Origin: a virus
Lineage: Duplodnaviria > Caudoviricetes
IMG/VR virus record: IMGVR_UViG_3300020044_008144
Location: 1 to 30,021 of that record
Length of the DNA stretch: 30,021 bases
Reading direction: 5' to 3' (one strand)
The position numbers and the translations under genes are program-made. Position 1 is the first letter of the stretch, and every line of letters begins with the position of its first letter. Positions 1,280 through 28,982 of this stretch are shown piece after piece. Below the pieces are notes generated by a model. That model had not been told where the DNA came from. It ran no database searches and was given only the letters and a program-made list of their open reading frames with translations.

Positions 1280-3493
1280 CTACAACCAAGAGTCCAACGC
1301 TGTCCAGAAGCTGAATGCTGTTTGTGACCTCTTGCCGTGGAATCGAAGTTGTTCCTGCCTAAAGTAGCGGTCAACCATAAGGTTCAGTGAGCGTTTACTG
1401 AACGGCATCCCGTCTTCAGGTGCGTCGTATTCCTGCTGAGGCTGGCTTGGCATTGATTGTTGTCGCTTGAATTCCTCGACGTGTCCGTTAATCCAGTCTT
1501 TGTCATGTGCTCCGGGTTTTGGTGGCGTATCTTCTCGCACCATTGCCCATGCGTTCTGTGCCCATTCACCGTCATCGCTGCCGAGGAACTCGTACAGATC
1601 AGAATCATCCACGCTTCCTTTAAGCTGGTCTGCTCCGAGTAGATTCGAATGGTCCTGATTGCGGTTTTCCATTCTTTTGAGAGTGGACCTATCAGTGTTC
1701 CATGCCTTCAGAATGTTCGATTTCATCTTCTCGCGGCGTTCCCACTCGCCTTGTTCATGACGCTGCATCTCGTCGATATGGTCTTTGAACTGCTCTGGCA
1801 AGAACTCATTTTGCTCAGCAGCCTGATAGATGTTTTCTTCAGGATCGTCCTGAACTGCTTTCTTGTTTTTAGAGTTGAGGCGATATCGCTTGGCGTTCCA
1901 TTTCTGCATTGCCGATTCATATGTTTCCGGCTTTGTTTTTCGCCATTCGGCAAGCTCTTGTGGATCTTCCGACGCCGGTCGTCTTGCTCGGTAATCCTGC
2001 ATTTTCTGGAGTTGTTCTGGCGTGTCGAACTGGTCTTCTGTCGGGGCAGGAACATCGAACTCTTCACCTCCGGCGAATTCCTCTTCGCCTTCCGGTTCCG
2101 CGAAGTCGTTCACGTCAAAGCGGGTAATCCTGTCGAGTTCCGCTTTCTCCTTGCGTGCTTTGGCGGCAGGATTCTGGAAGATATCCCCATCGCTCGATTG
2201 GGCAGGCATGTCGAGCAATGACGGCTTGGTCGGTTTGGCGGGCTTCTCCGCTACTGGCAGTTTACCCATGCCAAGATCCTGCGGATTGTAATCGGGATTA
2301 TCTGAGCCATCCGGCAGAATCTTCTTGCGTGGGTTCGGGCCTGCTGGTTGAGTCTTCAGCTTCCCGAGAACGTCCGCTGTGAATGATTCAACAGTGTGTA
2401 CCTGCGGTGCTTTCGGCTTGAGATTATCTTTATTGAACAGCACATGCTCTTTCGTGCCGTCCGCGTGCGATACGACAATACCGTCATGTCCTTTCGATTC
2501 CAGTTGCTTACGAAACTGTGCAGATTTCTGAAATGAAGCGTCAAAACCTCTATCCAGTGATCTGAACTCGGCGGAACTCATTTGATACGGATTCTGCATC
2601 GTTGCCGTGTATTCCCCCGGCGTTCCGTACTGTGCGGCGTATTCTTTATTGTCTGTTGCGAAAACGTCTCCAAGTCCAGCAGTTGCGGCCCCTGATGGCT
2701 TGCTTGATCCTGTTTTTGGACTGTGCCACACATCGAAAGTCTGTGCGGATGGAGTGGTCGCGTCAACGTCCCATATCTCGGCAATGCGTGCCGTGTTAGC
2801 GTCCTTCGGCGTCTGCACTGGTGGTTTCTGTGGTCCCGCATCGCGAGCCTTCATTTGCTCCATACGTGCCGCCTTCTGCTCTGGCGTGCCACGTCTCGGA
2901 TCTCGATCGTATTCCGTCACGTCAGGTTTCGGCGTTCCCGGTTCTGCAAGCCACGGTTTAGGTGTGACGGGGGCTTGCTGCTCCTGCTGTTGCGTTGGTG
3001 GCGACTGCGATAACTTAGGCTTCTTGTCAGGGCGTTCCGTTAACGGACGTACTTCACGGGGTTTCGGTGCTGAAGACTGCTGCTTCTGACCTTCTGGCTT
3101 TGCCGTGAACTGCCCCGGCTTCTGACCACTGCCGGGAGTCTGTGCCCGTGGGTGGAGCTTCTCGAAGTCCTGATTGCTCGGTGATGACTGCTGAGCAGGT
3201 TTCGGCTTTTGCGGAGATGCTTGCGATTGGCGTGACATGACATGGTTCATGGCGTGCATCGCCAGAACTGACATTAGCAGTTTCATCACATTGCGGCCCA
3301 TGCCGTACCGTTCAACGTCAATGCCGTTGTGTCGCAGGTATTTCTCAGTCTCCTGCTCTACGATAGGGTGGATCTTCGGTGCAAACTGCCCTGCGTGCTT
3401 TGCTCCATGATTAGTCACTTCCCGAGGGTGCATCGAGTTGAACAGCCCGCCAATCTTCGGTTCCGCTTTCGGTGGCTCGAAGATAACGCCCAT
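1280..3493 (-). CDS. Large low-complexity polyvalent-type protein with ADP-ribosyltransferase-like (ART-PolyVal-like) domain at ~2417-2737
   Basis: VWH...GLGDVFATDNKEYAAQYG...MQNPY...LESKGHDGIVV...KEHVLFNKDNLK matches the ART-PolyVal motif layout; two HPR..GQF motifs; frame open upstream to at least 3637. Confidence 0.7.
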   Translation of the reverse strand: MGVIFEPPKAEPKIGGLFNSMHPREVTNHGAKHAGQFAPKIHPIVEQETEKYLRHNGIDVERYGMGRNVMKLLMSVLAMHAMNHVMSRQSQASPQKPKPAQQSSPSNQDFEKLHPRAQTPGSGQKPGQFTAKPEGQKQQSSAPKPREVRPLTERPDKKPKLSQSPPTQQQEQQAPVTPKPWLAEPGTPKPDVTEYDRDPRRGTPEQKAARMEQMKARDAGPQKPPVQTPKDANTARIAEIWDVDATTPSAQTFDVWHSPKTGSSKPSGAATAGLGDVFATDNKEYAAQYGTPGEYTATMQNPYQMSSAEFRSLDRGFDASFQKSAQFRKQLESKGHDGIVVSHADGTKEHVLFNKDNLKPKAPQVHTVESFTADVLGKLKTQPAGPNPRKKILPDGSDNPDYNPQDLGMGKLPVAEKPAKPTKPSLLDMPAQSSDGDIFQNPAAKARKEKAELDRITRFDVNDFAEPEGEEEFAGGEEFDVPAPTEDQFDTPEQLQKMQDYRARRPASEDPQELAEWRKTKPETYESAMQKWNAKRYRLNSKNKKAVQDDPEENIYQAAEQNEFLPEQFKDHIDEMQRHEQGEWERREKMKSNILKAWNTDRSTLKRMENRNQDHSNLLGADQLKGSVDDSDLYEFLGSDDGEWAQNAWAMVREDTPPKPGAHDKDWINGHVEEFKRQQSMPSQPQQEYDAPEDGMPFSKRSLNLMVDRYFRQEQLRFHGKRSQTAFSFWTALDSWL

Positions 3494-3615
3494 CTTCTCT
3501 CCGGTGCGAACAGCATTACTGATGGCATCTCTCCGGTCGTGACCGTAAACGCGAAACTCTTTGCCGTCCTTCAGAACTGCCGATGCAATCCACCCCTCGT
3601 CAGTTTCGACAACTT

Positions 3616-3789
3616 TCAGCAGTGGATTACTCCCGCCTTTGGTGCAAACTGACCGGGGTGTCGATTCGGATTCGGAATGTTGTCCCTCTCGCGTGCGTGC
3701 AGTTCCTCGCGGAATCCTACAGCGTGCGGGACGGCTGGAGTATCACCGAAAAGCGTCTTTTGTGCGGCATACTTGTCGATGTCACTCAT
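3616..3789 (-). CDS. Short ORF, probably the N-terminus of the 1280-3493 protein split by a -1 frameshift
   Basis: Start overlaps portal stop (ATGA); has DKY and H.RE..GQFAPK motifs; the -1 frame after CCA AAG runs without stop into the 737-aa ORF. Confidence 0.6.
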   Translation of the reverse strand: MSDIDKYAAQKTLFGDTPAVPHAVGFREELHARERDNIPNPNRHPGQFAPKAGVIHC

Positions 3790-6700
3790 TGGCAGCACTC
3801 TCCTGATTCAATCCATGACTTGAATTCCGAGACGGTCATCGGCACGATCTCGCCACACTTCCAGCCTTTCGGGTAGTGAGACAAGTAAAGTTGTCGGGCC
3901 TGCGATTCATTGATACATCCGGCCATGACTTTATGTTCATCGAATTCACCATGCTCATCGCACTGATGAACTACAAACACGATATCTGATTCAGGCTGCT
4001 TGCCCATGAAGATATCAACGTGATCCCCATCCGATCCTTCCGTTCCAGAGATGTAGCCATAATGGGCACTCATGTCGGAACGCCAGATGCTTCCACTTGG
4101 TGAAACACCTCGCCGGGTTGATCCTCGCGGGTTCTCGATGACGATCGTCATGCCGTTCCAGTTGAAGCGGCCCTTCTTGTAGTTCCCTGCTTTGATTTGA
4201 GCATCCGATGGGTCTGTCTCCGTATATTCGGCAGCTTCGCGGATAACGCGATCCTGACGACGCTCATAGCGTTCTTTTTGGAGTTGCTGGATCTCATTGC
4301 GGTAGTACCGCATAACCATTGCCCGAACTGCTGCGTACTGATCAGGTTCGATGAAACTGCCTGACAGTTGGCTGAGTGCTTCGATGGCTTTCTTCTGGAG
4401 CGTTGGCTTACTGATGGATTTCCCGGTTCGAGATATCCATTCATCCATAATTTTGTCTTGAGTGATCTTTTCTCCCGACTCGTCTTCGCCGGTGAACCAT
4501 GCTCGAACAAGCCACCGCGTGTGCGGATCTTTGATCGTTTCGAATGCCTTTTCGAGTGCGGCTGTGTGTTTGTCGCTGTATGGCTGGTCGTTGCCCTTGG
4601 ACGCTACGCCGGAAAGCAGGTCGTTTCCTTCACCGTCATCAGTGGCAGATGCGTTGCTGGTCATCTTCACTTCTTTGCGTCGGTTCAGGTTCTTGATCTC
4701 CTGAGCCATATTTCTGACAGCAAACTTCTTGAAGTCGCCTTTGCTTTCATCGTACCACTCGGCAGATTTCATCAGGCCGTCCATTGCCGCGTCTGTAGCA
4801 GCGTGGTCATCCCTGACGGACCATCCCTTTTTCTGCATCATGCGGACAACCTGATCCACGAGCGTGAAGTGATCCGTCACAAGCTGGTCACGTTTTGATG
4901 TGCCGCTTGAGGTGACACGTTCGGGTGATGTGTCGATATTTGCAGGCTTTTGTGACACGTCAGACTTCGGCGCTGATTTCAGCGCCGAATTTTCCTGTAC
5001 GGCTGTAGCCGGTTGGTTAGTCGGCTCCGGTACTGTTTCCACGCTTGGTGGATCAGCTTGTTTCTGGCCTCTCATTGCACTAATTATCGACGGTTTGTTC
5101 TTTCTTATTTCGCTAGCCAATAGCTTCCTGTCATCGCGAACATTGAGGTCTAATGGGTTGCCATTGAATGAAGTCTTGTTTTCAAATTCCTGAAGCGCAC
5201 GATCAAAAGCGACTTCTGCGTTCCCGGATATCAGGCTGTGCCTGATTGTGTTTTCAAGTATCTCGGACGGCCCATGTGTTCTCACGCCCTGCCAGATCCT
5301 TGTTGCTATAGGCTGTATCGTCTTGTCTATTGCAGACAGCGTTGAATCGGCGTTTTCTACTAAGCTAGATACTCCTTTCTTTGCGGCATGTTTCATGTCC
5401 TTAATTCCAGCCCTCTTGGCAATTGGGTGGATTTCCGCAGGTATGCTTTCTGGCTTAGATTCTTGTGGTGCAGCATCTTCGCCGGATTGCCGTGGCTTAG
5501 GCTGGACAGGTGACGCGGCTGGCTGTGCGAGTGCCTTCATACTGTCGGCACTTCCGCCCATCATACGACGTTTCGTAACAGGGGCTGTCGTCGGTGCGGG
5601 AGTAGCTGTTTCCTGAATTACAGCCGGTTCTGGCTGTGGTTCAGGCTCACGGACTGGCTCAGGGGCAGGAGGCTCGACAGTGGCTTGTGTCTCAATTGGA
5701 TCATCGAAGTTTAACCGCCCCTGCTTTGTTTCAGCGTGCTCCGCAAACAGGCTACGGATTCGATCGTTCAACGCCTTCCGGCTTGAGCGTGGTTTCCCGG
5801 AGAATCGCCCTGACTGCCGTGCTGCTGGCTTCACACCTTCAAACAGGCTTTTCTGTTGTGGTGCAGTCTTCTTGGATGTGAACTGACCGGCCTTGTGGAC
5901 TGTATCTGTAGATGACTCGCGTGGATGAAGATTCTCTTCCCAGTTGAAACTGCCCTGAATTGCGTACTTGTCGCGTTCCAGTTTCCGTGCGTACTGGTCC
6001 AGCATCGACCGAATCAGGTCAACAGGATCTGGCTCGCCATCCTCGTCAGTTTCTGGATTATCGCCGTTTTCCTGATCGGGAAAACTACCCCCCTCTGGAA
6101 ACCCATTTGGGTCTGAATTGTCCCCATCGGGAATTCCGCCCATTGCAGGGTCCATGCCGGGCATTCCAGGCATACCGGCAGGCTGCTGAGACTGCATGGA
6201 AAGAATTTTCTCCCCACTTGTCGGGGCAGATAATCCGAGAGTTTTGAACACTTCCGACTCTGCAATTCGTGCCCCCATCTGGTAGGCAGAATTCAGGGCT
6301 TCCATTCGCTCCTGTGTCTTGTCGTCCTCAGTCTTCAGGCTCATCCGCATGTGCCATCCCATTGTCTCAGGGAAGTTCAACTGCTGGATATACCGCACCA
6401 GTTCATGTGTCAGCGTCTCTTCCAGATTGCGTGCATCGAAGTTCACGATCTGGCTGAGAGTATCCATGTGGGCTTCAGCAACGCCCGAACCCATGCCGGT
6501 CGCCTTGGCTTCTGTGCTGAGTTCCTGACCGAGAATGTACCGCTTCAGCCGACCGCCGAAGTAGTTCTCGATAATGTTCTGCATGATGTCAAGCCCCATC
6601 GCTCCCGGCTCGATCACCTCAAACTTGTACGTGTCGCTGTCGTCTCCCATTGGCTTCGGGAAGAACACAACATTTCGACCGTTGGCCATCTTTTCGCGTG

Positions 6701-7679
6701 CGGCCTTCTGCGTGGCAGCGAGGGCTTTCGGGTCGCCCATTGGGTAGGTCCAGACTTCAATGCCTCCCGCTGAGCGTTCGAGGTACTGCATCAGGAATGC
6801 AAAGGCTTCCTGCTTCAGAAACCATTCCCAATAGATTTTGGATCTGATGCCTACGCCGTGAATTGAACCAGCGAAATAGCTGTGATGGAAACTGGCGTCT
6901 TCCACCATGTGCTTGTGAACAACGAACGTATCCCGCTCGTACTGCTTCAGGAACAGAGCAAGTCCGTCATAGACAGGTTCTAGCTTGTAAGGTCTGTGAA
7001 TTCTCAGGTCGTGGCCTGCTGGATTCATGCCGACGCGAATACCCATCTGGTGTGGGTAGGCTGAATCGTCCTGATAGCTGAACCCGTCTTCATAGCGGAA
7101 CACCAGCTTATCGCCATTGATTGGCATCCACCCGTTATGGTCCCGGTGGAGCGGTGTCGGCATGATACGCATGGCCCCGTTGACGCGGGTGTATCCGTAC
7201 TTATGCTGAATGCCTGACTTGCCGTACCAGATGGCTTTCATCAGCCACATACGGTATTTGGTGAAGTTCCTGATTCGGCTGACGATCCGCTGAAGCTCCT
7301 GAGCCAAGCTGACTTGGTACTGACACTTCTCGTCTTCCGGCTTAATCTCCCAGTCAAGCAAAGCTGTCAGGCGTTGACGGCATTCGACTGATTCCAGAAG
7401 GCCAACATCCTTCTCCATTAGGTGGGCGTTCTCGATGGAATCCCGAACCGCTTCGTCAGGGTTGGTGTACGCTCGGGAGAATGTGCCGATCAGTGATTGA
7501 AACGTCAATAAGTGCGGAACAGTATCGTTGCCGAATAGCGGTGGTGCTCCCGGCGTTTTGCTGGCCGGATCGGTCGAGTTGGCGAGCTTTTCAGAGATCC
7601 AGTTGGCTACGTGCTCCGCATTTTTACTCTGCGGATTGATCATGAAATGAAAATCAGTAGCGGAGGGTTCGGCCATCAT
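3786..7679 (-). CDS. Portal protein (Mu gp29/DUF935-like, ~6200-7679) fused to sigma-70-like (~4365-4892) and inorganic pyrophosphatase-like (~3810-4220) domains
   Basis: Portal motifs RQRLTALLDWEI, AIWYGKS, ILGQELST, GSGVAEAH...DARNLEETL..ELVR.I..LNF; sigma region 2/4-like text; InPase-like AGNYKKG..IENPRGS.R..YGYI.GTEG.DGDHVD..FDEHKVM. Confidence 0.85.
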   Translation of the reverse strand: MMAEPSATDFHFMINPQSKNAEHVANWISEKLANSTDPASKTPGAPPLFGNDTVPHLLTFQSLIGTFSRAYTNPDEAVRDSIENAHLMEKDVGLLESVECRQRLTALLDWEIKPEDEKCQYQVSLAQELQRIVSRIRNFTKYRMWLMKAIWYGKSGIQHKYGYTRVNGAMRIMPTPLHRDHNGWMPINGDKLVFRYEDGFSYQDDSAYPHQMGIRVGMNPAGHDLRIHRPYKLEPVYDGLALFLKQYERDTFVVHKHMVEDASFHHSYFAGSIHGVGIRSKIYWEWFLKQEAFAFLMQYLERSAGGIEVWTYPMGDPKALAATQKAAREKMANGRNVVFFPKPMGDDSDTYKFEVIEPGAMGLDIMQNIIENYFGGRLKRYILGQELSTEAKATGMGSGVAEAHMDTLSQIVNFDARNLEETLTHELVRYIQQLNFPETMGWHMRMSLKTEDDKTQERMEALNSAYQMGARIAESEVFKTLGLSAPTSGEKILSMQSQQPAGMPGMPGMDPAMGGIPDGDNSDPNGFPEGGSFPDQENGDNPETDEDGEPDPVDLIRSMLDQYARKLERDKYAIQGSFNWEENLHPRESSTDTVHKAGQFTSKKTAPQQKSLFEGVKPAARQSGRFSGKPRSSRKALNDRIRSLFAEHAETKQGRLNFDDPIETQATVEPPAPEPVREPEPQPEPAVIQETATPAPTTAPVTKRRMMGGSADSMKALAQPAASPVQPKPRQSGEDAAPQESKPESIPAEIHPIAKRAGIKDMKHAAKKGVSSLVENADSTLSAIDKTIQPIATRIWQGVRTHGPSEILENTIRHSLISGNAEVAFDRALQEFENKTSFNGNPLDLNVRDDRKLLASEIRKNKPSIISAMRGQKQADPPSVETVPEPTNQPATAVQENSALKSAPKSDVSQKPANIDTSPERVTSSGTSKRDQLVTDHFTLVDQVVRMMQKKGWSVRDDHAATDAAMDGLMKSAEWYDESKGDFKKFAVRNMAQEIKNLNRRKEVKMTSNASATDDGEGNDLLSGVASKGNDQPYSDKHTAALEKAFETIKDPHTRWLVRAWFTGEDESGEKITQDKIMDEWISRTGKSISKPTLQKKAIEALSQLSGSFIEPDQYAAVRAMVMRYYRNEIQQLQKERYERRQDRVIREAAEYTETDPSDAQIKAGNYKKGRFNWNGMTIVIENPRGSTRRGVSPSGSIWRSDMSAHYGYISGTEGSDGDHVDIFMGKQPESDIVFVVHQCDEHGEFDEHKVMAGCINESQARQLYLSHYPKGWKCGEIVPMTVSEFKSWIESGECCQ
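4967..4988. repeat. 22-bp palindrome TCGGCGCTGA-TT-TCAGCGCCGA, copy 1 (in portal gene)
   Basis: Identical to 21773-21794 and 25386-25407; encodes SALKSAP. Confidence 0.9.
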
Positions 7680-25605: not shown

Positions 25606-28347
25606 CTACCTGCCTCCTTTTCGATTGCTCTTGTGCTGCGTCGTGAATCCACGCAAGCCACGCTCGGGAAGATACTCGCCTGATGTCTGGGCAGTAATCT
25701 CGGAATGAGATTTTGCGGAAGAAATTGTTGAGTTCAGCATCGAATCGGCAGAAAAGAGGGCATACCTCATTCCGTCGACTTGGTGATCATTCTTCTTGAG
25801 CGGGCTTCTCGGTGCATCTTTTGGATTGCGTCCAGCCTTTGCTTTCGGATCTGCCCCACGCATCCATCGGTAGGTCTTCATTTGCTGGACAAGTTTAGGG
25901 CAGTTGTAACGGTGGATGAATAGCTTTGGCTCCATTCGAATCTTCACCTTGCCGGTTTCCGGGTCGATGATCGGCATTCCTTTCTCATCCACCATCGGGA
26001 CTGGAATCTGTGGCTTTAGCAGATACTGAACGTGCTCGATCCCTTCAATGACGGAGTTCTTTCCTCGCATCATGTGAAGATTCTCCACGGCTGGATTGTA
26101 GACGCTCAGCTTATTGGCAATGCGGATGTTGTCAGGGGAAGACGGGTCACAGAAAGACGGACCATAAGCAGACGTGTCAGGCCATTCCCACTGCTCATAG
26201 ACTTGGCTCAGGTGATCGACGGTGGTTTTCGTCTGATCGTTACTGCAATACTCGTCGTAGATGAACCACTGACCTAACCCGTTGCGTGCGGCCCATGTGC
26301 AGGTGAAGTCGTTTTCCGGCCCTGCTCCCCAGTCAATACCACGGAAGTGCGTGCAGCCTTTGAGTCGTGACCAGATTTCATCTCCCATGCAGTGCGTTGC
26401 GGTATTGAATTCCTTATAGATGACACCCTCAAACGATGCAAACATGCCAAGCATTCGCACGTCTCGCATGTCTTCCGGAACCATGCCAAAAAATTCCTCA
26501 AACCACTTCGCATCAACGTGACCAGCTTCCATCGCACACATGGTGTTCGCATGGTAAATCTTCCAGTTCTTTGGCAGGTATCTCAGGCCGGGCTGTCTGC
26601 CAGTCTCAGGCTCGTACCCGTTCTCTATCATCTCTTCGATGTCGATTGATAGGTCTGGATCTACTGGCGTGTATTCAACCAGCTTACTGCCGGGGAAGTT
26701 ATACTCGCGGCAACCTCGCAAGACTTCCTCGAATACACCCCAAGGGAATTGCTCGACAAAGGCAAAACCGCCGATCGCCTGAGCCATCATAGCTCCGATG
26801 CCCTGCTCATACGATCTGAATTCCAGCATCCAGTTATTGCCCTTTGCGTCGGGCTTCAGAGGGACCGAATAGGGTAGTCTCTGCTTTGACTTGTACCAGC
26901 CGACACGCGGCCAGTCGACATCCTTGTCGAGTATATGCCCCTGCCCGTACAGCTTTTCCTTCCAGCAGGTTTTCGTCACCTGATCGTAAGACTTGGCAAT
27001 AACCCAAAACGGAGTATCCGGCCTTGGCGGTGGCGTCTCGTAAATGAATCGAGCGACCTTAGCCAGAAGCGTTGTCGTTGTGTTGTGGTTCCATACTCCA
27101 GCCATCCAGTAATTTTCGTACTCCGGGACGTGGAAGTCCCAGTATGAATCTCGACGAATGAATTCAATGGAGGTAATATATGCGGGTTTAGATTCCGTTT
27201 CCCCCGAAAGGATTAGACAAGATGGCGACACAGAGGAAGCCTTGGCCGATTGCAGACATGATTCGCATGTACGATGCAGGCAAGAGCCTTGAAGAACTGG
27301 CTGAGGTTCTTCGCTCGGAAGAGTGGCAGCAATACTGGATTCAGCACACTGGTACGAATTACTACCCATCTCAGAAGGTAGTAAACAAGGTAATGAAGAA
27401 ACATCATATCCTTCGCGGTCGAGGTGCACCGGGCGAACGCAACGGATCCTGGAAAGGCGGCGTGCGTGTCGATCGTCGCGGCTATGTTCTTGTTTACAAA
27501 CCTGATCATCCCTTTGCAGCCTCAAACGGGTGCGTTCGGATGCATCGACTCGTTGCAGAAGAGAAGCTAGGCCGTTACCTGACTCAGGATGAGGTTGTTC
27601 ATCACAAGGATGAAGATCCCGGCAACAACAGTCCGGAAAATCTGATGGTCTACGAGACGAATGCAATTCACATTGCTGAAACGCTTTCTGGCAGGTCAAC
27701 AGACGGGCAAAAGAAAGGTCTGTCGCGTGCTCACGCCACGAAGCGGCAGAAGTTCGATGCGGATAAATACTGGCCGTTTGACCTTCTCGACTCACTTCGT
27801 GCAGATGGTCTGTCGACGTATCAGATTGCCGATCTGATGGAGTGTGATCGCCGCACTGTGTCACGCCATCTGAAGCGGCATGGACTGCCTGAGAATGTTG
27901 TAAAAACTGGCGTGATAACTGACCATCATCGCGAACAATGTCGCCAATTTCTCGCCAGCCTTCAGCAGTCAGAAGACGATGCCCAAGCGTTGCACGAAAT
28001 ATCTGCCCATTAGACAGGGTGATTTCGTACAAATCTTCCGTGCCGTAGATTCGCGGTTGTTCTGCTTTTGTGACAACCGCACGGCCATCTTTGCTTCGTG
28101 CGATCACATGGAAGTCAGATTTGATATCTGAAACTGTGCGGTAGCAAGATTCTATTGGGTCAAAAACCAACTGTTCGGCAGCTAGGCAACCCGCCCCGTT
28201 GCCCCCAATCATCCAACCTACACCATCACCCTTACTCTCATAGAACGCCGTCTGCTCGTCGAAGCGTTCCGGCTGGTCTGGTCGTGGCGTGAAGTGCAGG
28301 TACGCCGGGAAGTCTCTGACGCTTCCTGTCTGTGATATAGCAACCAT
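25606..28347 (-). CDS. terL: Terminase large subunit, intein-containing (913 aa precursor, 544 aa spliced)
   Basis: P-loop region GGNGAG, YTP motif, RNase H-like nuclease motifs GIDWG, CDPS and NDHQVDGMRY; AAAGGA RBS. Confidence 0.9.
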   Translation of the reverse strand: MVAISQTGSVRDFPAYLHFTPRPDQPERFDEQTAFYESKGDGVGWMIGGNGAGCLAAEQLVFDPIESCYRTVSDIKSDFHVIARSKDGRAVVTKAEQPRIYGTEDLYEITLSNGQIFRATLGHRLLTAEGWREIGDIVRDDGQLSRQFLQHSQAVHAASDGVTQCGDHTPSDRQSDTSTDHLHEVSREGQTASIYPHRTSAASWREHATDLSFARLLTCQKAFQQCELHSSRRPSDFPDCCCRDLHPCDEQPHPESGNGLASLLQRVDASERTRLRLQRDDQVCKQEHSRDDRHARRLSRIRCVRPVHLDREGYDVSSLPCLLPSEMGSNSYQCAESSIAATLPSEEPQPVLQGSCLHRTCESCLQSAKASSVSPSCLILSGETESKPAYITSIEFIRRDSYWDFHVPEYENYWMAGVWNHNTTTTLLAKVARFIYETPPPRPDTPFWVIAKSYDQVTKTCWKEKLYGQGHILDKDVDWPRVGWYKSKQRLPYSVPLKPDAKGNNWMLEFRSYEQGIGAMMAQAIGGFAFVEQFPWGVFEEVLRGCREYNFPGSKLVEYTPVDPDLSIDIEEMIENGYEPETGRQPGLRYLPKNWKIYHANTMCAMEAGHVDAKWFEEFFGMVPEDMRDVRMLGMFASFEGVIYKEFNTATHCMGDEIWSRLKGCTHFRGIDWGAGPENDFTCTWAARNGLGQWFIYDEYCSNDQTKTTVDHLSQVYEQWEWPDTSAYGPSFCDPSSPDNIRIANKLSVYNPAVENLHMMRGKNSVIEGIEHVQYLLKPQIPVPMVDEKGMPIIDPETGKVKIRMEPKLFIHRYNCPKLVQQMKTYRWMRGADPKAKAGRNPKDAPRSPLKKNDHQVDGMRYALFSADSMLNSTISSAKSHSEITAQTSGEYLPERGLRGFTTQHKSNRKGGR
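27151..27179 (+). promoter_or_regulatory. Candidate sigma70-like promoter for the antisense HNH gene
   Basis: TCGACG-17 nt-TAATAT, ~40 nt upstream of ATG 27222; RBS AAAGGA at 27207-27212. Confidence 0.45.
27222..28013 (+). CDS. HNH homing endonuclease with HTH domains, nested antisense inside the intein
   Basis: N.SWKGG...GYVLVYKPDHP...MHRLVAE..LGR.L...EVVHHKD....NN.PENL (HNH_3-like); C-terminal HTH GLSTYQIADLMECDRRTVSRHLK; RBS present. Confidence 0.92.
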   Translation: MATQRKPWPIADMIRMYDAGKSLEELAEVLRSEEWQQYWIQHTGTNYYPSQKVVNKVMKKHHILRGRGAPGERNGSWKGGVRVDRRGYVLVYKPDHPFAASNGCVRMHRLVAEEKLGRYLTQDEVVHHKDEDPGNNSPENLMVYETNAIHIAETLSGRSTDGQKKGLSRAHATKRQKFDADKYWPFDLLDSLRADGLSTYQIADLMECDRRTVSRHLKRHGLPENVVKTGVITDHHREQCRQFLASLQQSEDDAQALHEISAH

Positions 28348-28558: not shown

Positions 28559-28771
28559 TTATTTCCATTCCACTTCGGGTGCGTCATCGTCTTCGCTTGG
28601 CGGCTTTGCGGCCACTAGCTCAACTTCGTCGCATTCCCAGTCTTTCCCAATCGCACACATCGCCCTCTGAAGCAATGCGGCGTCCCGGCTGGTGATCTCA
28701 TCCGGAACATTTCGGACGATCACAGTGCAGGATTCTTCCTTCACGAGCGTTACGACCAAATCACGCGGCAT
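28559..28771 (-). CDS. Small acidic hypothetical protein
   Basis: AAGGA RBS, overlaps upstream gene end. Confidence 0.55.
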   Translation of the reverse strand: MPRDLVVTLVKEESCTVIVRNVPDEITSRDAALLQRAMCAIGKDWECDEVELVAAKPPSEDDDAPEVEWK

Positions 28772-28982
28772 TGTGCGAATCCTTAACCGACAGCGCCTGC
28801 GGTGGGCACTGCTGAACCTGCTTCCTTATTTCGTCCGTCGTCGCCCCGTTCATGTTCACCCAGGGCTTTGCCTGTGGATCGAAAACGAAAGGCAGACCAC
28901 GCCAACAGGCTTCGCAGTGCTCGCACTTCTCCGAGTCCCACAGGACCGTCAAGCTGTCTTTTGTGTACTCACGCTTTGCCAT
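28761..28982 (-). CDS. YjdI/Fer4_19-like divergent 4Fe-4S protein
   Basis: Y....LTV.WD...C.HC..C.RGLP.VF....KPW.......CP..AL matches the YjdI family layout. Confidence 0.8.
   Translation of the reverse strand: MAKREYTKDSLTVLWDSEKCEHCEACWRGLPFVFDPQAKPWVNMNGATTDEIRKQVQQCPPQALSVKDSHNAA

Follow-up and report, generated by a model that had tools for sequence, protein, structure and literature searches.

Can an intein whose own reading frame holds no nuclease belong to a mobile element whose endonuclease is encoded across it on the opposite strand? The question is raised by the large terminase subunit gene (terL) of a tailed virus (Duplodnaviria; Caudoviricetes), IMG/VR record IMGVR_UViG_3300020044_008144, of which positions 1 to 30,021 were analyzed (30,021 nt, referred to below as the window); portal and head-tail adaptor genes are present in the window, and a phage origin is therefore likely. 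A preliminary description of this DNA had reported an intein in TerL and, on the opposite strand, an open reading frame (ORF) for an HNH endonuclease of 263 amino acids (aa) with a ribosome binding site (RBS), and these coordinates proved exact. Judging from sequence comparisons and structure models, we consider it likely that the locus is a two-gene selfish element, i.e., an uninterrupted intein with predicted splicing activity in the P-loop of TerL together with an intact antisense HNH gene, which likely has a promoter of its own and whose product likely nicks or cuts terL alleles without the intein.

The terL intein and its antisense gene

The precursor and its intein are laid out as follows.

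25606..28347, minus strand: terL precursor ORF, 913 aa, with a predicted spliced product of 544 aa (PHROG terminase large subunit, E 2.5e-12)
28189..28347, minus strand: N-extein, aa 1-53, ending in the P-loop GGNGAG (empty alleles read GGNGAG/TTTTLL, the slash marking the insertion site)
27082..28188, minus strand: contiguous class 1 intein, 369 aa, terL aa 54-422, as judged from splicing residues and model fold
25606..27081, minus strand: C-extein, 491 aa, beginning at Thr+1
27979..27990, minus strand: intein block B (TLGH), across which the tail of the HNH gene runs antisense

The intein is an in-frame insertion at the conserved P-loop and is absent from empty homologues such as P0125, L009, and L010, which read GGNGAG/TTTTLL and belong to the empty TerL alleles of 540–545 aa; the PHROG terminase match covers the 913-aa ORF's C-terminal part. 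All the splicing blocks announced in the preliminary description were found, namely C1, T67/H70 (block B TxxH), D351 (block F), H368-N369, and T+1. Each of these residues is invariant in 25/25 aligned inteins, and 102 of the 105 parsed family inteins follow the pattern C...HN before S, T, or C. In the predicted model, pLDDT (predicted local distance difference test score) is 92–98 over aa 1–90 and 95–97 over aa 341–369, and the fold is that of a HINT domain (Foldseek match to the Mtu RecA intein, E 6e-7, root mean square deviation (rmsd) 1.6 over the N-terminal 86 columns), with further matches to DnaB and DnaE inteins, while the Pfam Intein_splicing match (E 2.8e-5) lies below its cutoff. The centre is predicted to be disordered (pLDDT < 50 across most of aa 130–331) and, as had been described, is rich in certain residues (13% Ser, 10% Arg, 5% Cys) and devoid of a nuclease: no nuclease family was matched in the terL frame with Pfam or PHROG, and the canonical in-frame endonuclease domain is thus missing by these searches. 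The terL frame has 0 stops in the intein (compared to 10 and 23 in its two companion frames on the minus strand) and runs unbroken around the HNH gene, so within the window this is not a split intein.

The features on the opposite strand are the following.

27222..28013, plus strand: antisense HNH endonuclease gene, 263 aa (Pfam HNH_3, E 7.5e-10, above its cutoff)
27225..27425, plus strand: N-terminal helical domain resembling a helix-turn-helix (HTH), aa 2-68, likely DNA-binding according to its model (pLDDT 88-93 over aa 11-60; weak HTH-fold matches, Z 4-5.5)
27432..27689, plus strand: I-HmuI-like nuclease core, aa 71-156, with the motif HRL...HHxD....N...NL........H (structure match and motif)
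27777..27881, plus strand: C-terminal HTH, about aa 186-220, likely DNA-binding by its sequence match (Pfam HTH_38, E 5.8e-8)
27208..27212, plus strand: Shine-Dalgarno-like AAGGA, 9 nt before the HNH ATG
27169..27191, plus strand: upstream GGAGG and in-frame ATG (27180), followed by TAG after 3 codons

The protein was assigned to HNH_3 by both Pfam and PHROG (a Pfam HTH_23 match was also obtained) and is I-HmuI-like by fold, as the best PDB match of its core was 1U3E (VIA Z 7.0, rmsd 3.5, 78 aa; Foldseek rank 1, E 0.043). The catalytic motif is intact in the window and in 102/109 nested representatives of the family described below, and H108, R109, H127, H128, N136, N140, and H150 are invariant in 25/25 aligned HNH proteins. 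I-HmuI, which nicks DNA, is intron-encoded, whereas the HNH gene of the window lies antisense inside an intein. Its codon positions 1, 2, and 3 pair with terL positions 1, 3, and 2. In L001 and P0001, the reading frame of the upstream ATG stays open and lengthens the protein by 14 aa; this ATG is unlikely to be the true start, as most homologues have a Met near 27222 in common. The overlap of the HNH tail with block B, to which the preliminary description had drawn attention, is real but is the family norm (67/94 members). A special function for it is not supported, since the end of the protein differs from one homologue to the next and pLDDT is < 50 at aa 253–263, and the tail looks like a run-on to the first stop.

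Two reading frames on one stretch of DNA

The openness of the terL frame across the HNH gene had been given a chance of about 1e-5 under uniform codon use, (61/64)^230, which we recomputed as 1.6e-5. A stronger null was obtained by keeping the HNH protein fixed and redrawing its codons: 8.6 stops (phage codon usage) or 8.9 stops (own codons shuffled) were expected in the terL frame and 0 were seen, an outcome reached in 0 of 20,000 simulations under either codon model, with 35 sites at risk and none forced. The idea that an open frame is easier to maintain in this phase than in others was rejected, as stops in ordinary genes of the window are denser in it than in the two other antisense phases (4.39 vs 3.57 and 2.99 per 100 codons), and free-standing HNH relatives carry 139 host-phase stops in 3,880 codons.

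An independent contig, L001, carries the same ungapped 1107-nt intein at 86% identity, which permitted the test of selection by frame that had been proposed. The HNH proteins are 90% identical, with a ratio of nonsynonymous to synonymous substitution rates (dN/dS) of 0.10 and 65/91 differences at third positions, as opposed to 72% identity and a dN/dS of 2.7–3.7 for the terL-frame peptide over the same DNA; the corresponding ratios are 0.05–0.07 in the exteins and 0.11–0.18 in the splicing ends. Purifying selection is thus seen for the HNH protein but not for the antisense peptide, and openness, rather than sequence, is apparently what selection keeps in the host frame.

An alignment of 25 HNH proteins was used as the query against three collections, and 215 HNH-related loci were retained (best 80 of 211 viral, best 80 of at least 462 metagenome, and 55/55 genome loci), which were scanned with intein profiles built from TerL inteins. 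The HNH gene lies antisense inside one open ORF with both intein ends in 145/215 loci, always in the phase of the window and in 109 of 167 clusters at 95% identity; 13 other loci have one intein end, 5 lie in a long antisense ORF without intein match, and 52 are free or unclassified. When loci with intein N and C matches on both sides of the HNH gene were counted irrespective of frame (n = 146), the host frame was open in 145 and broken in 1. We relied on this count as evidence of stop avoidance; the family total of 0 vs 335.6 expected stops was not used, because it is circular for a class defined by its open frame. The preliminary description had regarded homologues with stops in the host frame as telling against dual coding; one was found (L102), and it looks instead like a rescued derivative (see below).

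The hosts of the family are diverse. NCBIfam gave independent intein-related matches for most of 33 host ORFs and named PBSX terminases, DnaX gamma/tau, SNF2-type helicases, Rad50/SMC, AAA ATPases, and a ClpX-like protein, and a Walker A-like segment follows 105/108 insertions, with 69 distinct flank pairs. The genome matches include the isolate Polaromonas sp. CG9_12 (L192; L195, its frameshifted duplicate at a contig start, was set aside). Cultured phages with the same layout in the TerL P-loop, in the phase of the window, are Pectobacterium phages Taid and Ymer and Pseudoalteromonas phage PHS3 (GenBank), and their inteins are therefore presumed to splice; in six further records of the Ymer genus, the HNH protein match alone gives 94–100% identity to that of Taid.

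These data also bear on whether the antisense ORF could be a mere reflection of the terL frame or a defunct remnant, or the locus could stem from mis-assembly, which we regard as very improbable. Among contigs of 4 sequencing runs, none covers the HNH part of the exact window allele, and in the window a stop closes the frame of the upstream ATG, whose RBS is the stronger one, as such an explanation would have it. Against it stand the selection on the HNH frame with its intact catalytic motif, the independent allele in L001 together with six proteins at 72–92% identity, and the occurrence of the layout in 109 clusters and in cultured phage genomes. The assembly chimera that had been named as a caveat is likewise made improbable by L001, as an intein carried there too is not an artefact peculiar to one assembly.

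The records of the cultured phages show how such genes are annotated. The TerL of PHS3 (L241, KX912252.1, 488–2614) was deposited as a coding sequence of 488–1663, shortened to make room for the HNH gene, although a 708-aa ORF is open; the TerL of Taid and Ymer (L239, L240, 347–2611) is listed in GenBank as "hypothetical", with the antisense HNH gene unannotated, and the main text of the Ymer paper (PMC11445585) does not contain the words "intein", "HNH", or "endonuclease". In all three phages, the HNH stop is only 40 nt from the intein start, and most of the N-terminal splicing domain is therefore dual-coding.

Expression signals, alleles, and signs of movement

The preliminary description had also supposed that expression of the nuclease is uncoupled from that of terL. 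A separate promoter signal was indeed found in the family, although it is weak in the window itself, where it reads as follows.

27151..27179, plus strand: candidate sigma70-type promoter for the HNH gene, TCGACG-17-TAATAT, score 6.7, inside the C-terminal coding sequence of the intein

The 100 nt upstream of the HNH gene were scanned in the 102 of the 109 representatives that had sufficient sequence, with approximate sigma70 weights. The mean best score was 7.44 (43% at ≥ 8), compared to 5.05 (13%) in shuffles, 5.32 (13%) on the opposite strand, 2.65 (2% at ≥ 8) in extein DNA, and 3.1 (4%) in HNH-internal DNA. Of the -10 boxes, 46/68 are concentrated at +92/93, +110, and +113, counted from the C end of the intein, and the candidate of the window is at a position used by 11 scored family members. 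Four family members have a perfect TTGACA-18-TATAAT, and PHS3 has TTGACA-17-GATAAT; 17/68 -10 boxes lie 6 nt before the start codon, which suggests a leaderless mRNA. A plus-strand terminator-like hairpin at 28042–28057 was discarded as not above chance (3 found vs 1.6 ± 1.2).

The alleles at the terL site were surveyed in the best 120 of 231 TerL homologues, most of which are empty at the position of the window's intein. Six more TerL proteins (P0127, P0129, P0166, P0179, P0188, and P0204) have inteins of 367–369 aa that are compatible with an antisense HNH gene at 81–100 of 100 positions, compared to 38–43 for inteins at two distant sites. The same site also shows an in-frame deletion series (inteins of 269, 208, 206, 196, and 162 aa) and mini-inteins of 134–138 aa, which may be deletion products rather than the ancestor. 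The preliminary description had viewed the element as a mobile unit, and the existence of empty and mini-intein alleles, as well as the signs of lateral movement given below, agrees with this. One mini-intein contig delimits the cassette.

27157..27940, strand not applicable: HNH cassette, 784 nt replaced by 88 other nt in the mini-intein contig of run X4

The net loss of 696 nt (232 codons) in the run X4 allele equals the size gap between P0122 and the window (137-aa vs 369-aa intein), and the -10 box of the window lies inside the missing block; in a contig of run X19 (depth 3), 636 nt are deleted in frame. The C-extein of P0122 is 99% identical to that of the window (100% over the first 300 aa), while the N part of its mini-intein is 78% identical. 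Relative to L001, the counts of differing four-fold sites in the window are 38/66 for the C-extein, 10/24 for the N-extein, 7/16 for the first intein codons, 30/108 for the HNH gene, and 2/18 for the C end of the intein; HNH four-fold sites free of stop constraint differ at 24/84 vs 38/66 in the C-extein (Fisher p 4e-4). The divergence step falls at the splice junction and, together with the swapping of alleles, fits lateral transfer of the cassette, or homing, for one sequence pair and few alleles.

Alternatively, the HNH cassette could be a parasite of inteins and not their partner, one that passes between splicing domains by recombination in conserved intein blocks and can convert mini-intein alleles, in which case its target need not span the insertion site. 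This would account for the first 47 intein codons of the window and L001 showing a divergence like that of the exteins (7/16 four-fold sites, 65% nt identity) when the HNH gene and the C end of the intein are closer, for the agreement of the mini allele with the window on either side of a cleanly bounded 784-nt block, and for the weak correlation of HNH and splicing-domain distances. Nevertheless, we think this doubtful: the C-side boundary is at the splice junction, as homing of the whole intein predicts, the nearest HNH neighbour is among the top 3 splicing-domain neighbours in 45/95 cases, and the pattern comes from one allele pair with few sites.

It is less probable still that the HNH gene is kept for a function in the phage (as a nuclease for packaging next to terL, as a DNA-binding regulator, or to exclude rival phages) and has ceased to mobilise the intein. 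The strong purifying selection on the protein and its two HTH-like modules would suit such a role, and phage HNH genes often adjoin terminase genes, according to the part of PMC3592412 consulted. Yet close relatives do without the HNH gene (P0122, with its 99% identical C-extein and a mini-intein, and the empty L009 and L010), the deletion series amounts to repeated loss, and the family also occurs in DnaX, helicases, SMC proteins, and AAA ATPases, where a role in packaging would make no sense.

In the two-gene selfish element that we favour, TerL would be made as a 913-aa precursor, and the 232-codon antisense stretch would form a disordered loop at the usual site of the endonuclease, to be spliced out with the intein to leave 544 aa. 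The sigma70-type promoter in the DNA coding for the intein's C-terminal part would drive the HNH gene independently of late terL expression, and the nuclease would act like I-HmuI near the P-loop codons of empty alleles, whose repair from the invaded allele would copy the intein in and thereby spread it. The unit may go back to a single ancient event in which an intein captured a free-standing HNH gene, as the one phase across the family suggests, and its exits would be in-frame deletion to mini-inteins and, rarely, conversion to a split intein. An internal GGNG in the intein, considered as a mimic of the target site, was set aside; it is not general in the alignment. The preliminary description had proposed that an HNH gene invaded a mini-intein, which remains a supported idea, but most likely not for an event at this locus, as the arrangement is old and widespread.

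Several observations count against this account. The resemblance to I-HmuI is of modest strength (Z 7.0; Foldseek E 0.043), and PDB sequence searches with the HNH protein gave no real nuclease match, I-HmuI included. The constraint on the HNH gene is weaker between Taid and Ymer (7/7/12 differences at the three codon positions; 14 of 232 aa changed). The window's own promoter (score 6.7) was not called by a strict consensus scan and its -10 box coincides with conserved host codons (Tyr-Ile). The low divergence in the C end of the intein (18 sites) could reflect promoter constraint and not transfer; the promoter controls comprised shuffles, the opposite strand, extein, and HNH-internal DNA, and HNH-less inteins were not among them. 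A single origin is not established either: HNH and splicing-domain distances are weakly correlated (Mantel r 0.18–0.24), and free-standing HNHs are interleaved (15 label changes vs 26 when shuffled) in a low-resolution tree (FastTree, nuclease core alone, 152 rows, 15 of 167 representatives being dropped for short matches).

The exit towards split inteins is illustrated by L102 (1802–3808, minus strand), where six host-frame stops lie between intact intein halves and the C half has its own AGAGG and ATG; from its sequence, it is likely a natural split intein with an antisense HNH gene between the halves. In L083 (480–773), a stop directly after the intein-N part marks another probable natural split intein with an antisense HNH gene, and P0189 begins inside an intein C part.

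Taken more widely, the evidence leaves us evenly divided on whether a single old HNH lineage has antisense nesting as its normal way of life, residing in one phase in the P-loop inteins of terminases, clamp loaders, helicases, SMC proteins, and AAA ATPases of phages and bacteria, with a sigma70 promoter (often for a leaderless mRNA) in the strand encoding the C-terminal splicing region, able to switch splicing domains and yielding mini- and split inteins. If this were true, many inteins that are read as having a decayed nuclease would be active two-gene mobile elements.

Known systems and further observations

The preliminary description knew of no published case of such a nested nuclease, which does not hold: in the portions compared of a preprint by Gosselin, Arsenault, and Gogarten (bioRxiv 10.1101/2025.01.02.630785), contiguous actinobacteriophage inteins with anti-sense LAGLIDADG or VSR-like nucleases, or with an out-of-frame EndoVII, are already described. 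Non-canonical inteins are called extremely rare there (63 of 784), HNH is listed in-frame only, and the second ORF is typically outside the splicing domain. Within that text, the shared traits are a contiguous intein with an open host frame, a separate nuclease ORF on the opposite strand, TerL among the hosts of the non-canonical inteins, a proposed origin by invasion of a free-standing nuclease, and evidence of continued transfer. Unlike its antisense types (LAGLIDADG, VSR-like), the nuclease of the window is HNH_3/I-HmuI-like; in contrast to the stated rarity, 109 clusters were obtained here from one query, with 67/94 HNH ORFs running through block B; and a promoter is not mentioned in the text compared, whereas the window's family has a promoter signal.

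An overlapping nuclease ORF in the cyanobacterial DnaX intein was reportedly first noted by Gorbalenya in 1998. This LAGLIDADG ORF is described as lying in the +2 frame in the compared part of Phillips, DeSimone, and Gogarten (bioRxiv 10.64898/2026.09.14.751524), while Gosselin et al., in the part compared, call the Synechocystis case anti-sense. As far as the former text goes, the overlapping ORF, omega < 1 for the frame of the nuclease but > 1 for that of the host, the disordered host-frame loop, and the coexistence of empty, mini, and full alleles are shared with the window, and the LAGLIDADG type and single host gene are not.

Fractured genes, in which the two parts of a split intein flank a free-standing endonuclease (Dassa et al. 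2009, PMC2677866, consulted in part), share the endonuclease gene between intein N and C parts, and L102 resembles one; they are described there as three ORFs on one strand with a split intein and a GIY-YIG or Vsr-like nuclease, whereas the window's family is contiguous in 145/146 flanked loci. The capture of a free-standing HNH gene as the origin, as suggested above, would follow the models of Dassa and Gosselin by analogy. The ShiLan-type insertion also hides an HNH gene in another frame of an open host frame, with a distantly related nuclease (about 38% over 78 aa to the Taid HNH), but that gene is on the same strand and without a splicing domain, in contrast to the opposite strand and full splicing domain of the window. 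The fold of the nuclease core and the HTH-type DNA-binding modules are shared with I-HmuI (1U3E) and with HNH_3 homing endonucleases (group 2 in the part of PMC5714182 compared).

By its sequence and model, the element would work like the published antisense-nuclease inteins, as a class 1 intein with a nuclease of neither the LAGLIDADG nor the VSR type. No report of an antisense-HNH intein was found in the literature searched (subscription journals were mostly outside it, as were bioRxiv supplements, including Gosselin Table S1), and the family appears undescribed, although the architecture itself is already known for other nucleases. The surprise is tempered because antisense or out-of-frame intein nucleases of the LAGLIDADG, VSR-like, and EndoVII types are in print in the sources cited. 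Nonetheless, a layout called extremely rare becomes a large family with cultured members, and standing questions are therefore now testable: whether inteins became mobile by capturing nucleases that stood free (the "splicing first" model), the rise and persistence of long overlapping genes, and the birth of mini- and split inteins, for which a single terL site shows empty, full, part-deleted, and mini alleles. The TerL records of Taid, Ymer, and PHS3 further expose a blind spot of annotation.

Other nuclease-bearing inteins were met along the way. Close terL relatives have a second intein site two residues upstream (GGNG/C...N/SG), also with an antisense HNH_3 gene in the phase of the window but of different sequence (287 aa in L005, E 7.2e-9); its carriers are L005/L006 (intein 2322–3494, ORF 2509–3372, minus strand), P0123, P0124, P0126, P0146–P0148, P0173, P0177, and P0232. 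A third intein near the C end of TerL has a same-strand, out-of-frame HNH_3 ORF with a Cys-rich tail (L015, 4964–5713, plus strand, E 5.7e-14), a type absent from those in the compared parts of the intein papers; similar Thr/Ser/Cys-rich intein centres occur in P0135, P0137, P0138, P0140, P0141, P0144, P0150, and P0151. In L189/L136 (1937–5428, minus strand), an antisense HNH gene in the phase of the window lies in an open ClpX-like frame of 1164 codons that matched neither the TerL-derived intein profiles nor NCBIfam intein models, and is either a divergent intein or a case of nesting without an intein. A helicase-like gene in L003 (3269–5998) has an HNH intein of the conventional, in-frame kind; its nuclease shares 46% identity with the HNH of the window over 69 aa, which by sequence makes it an in-frame counterpart within the same broad HNH family.

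In the terL family itself, Walker A is deviant, with Thr for the usual Lys (GGNGAG-TT, window 28189–28206 and 27070–27081); the Lys is found in none of the listed empty alleles, and more distant terminases read GNGSGKT. Directly upstream of terL is a small divergent 4Fe-4S ferredoxin-like gene (28761–28982, minus strand; Fer4_19, E 2e-18), and a similar ORF also precedes terL in L020. Elsewhere in the window, a 1297-aa protein (3786–7679, minus strand) combines a Mu-type portal with a C-terminal InPase domain (Pfam E 8e-37 and 3.4e-53).

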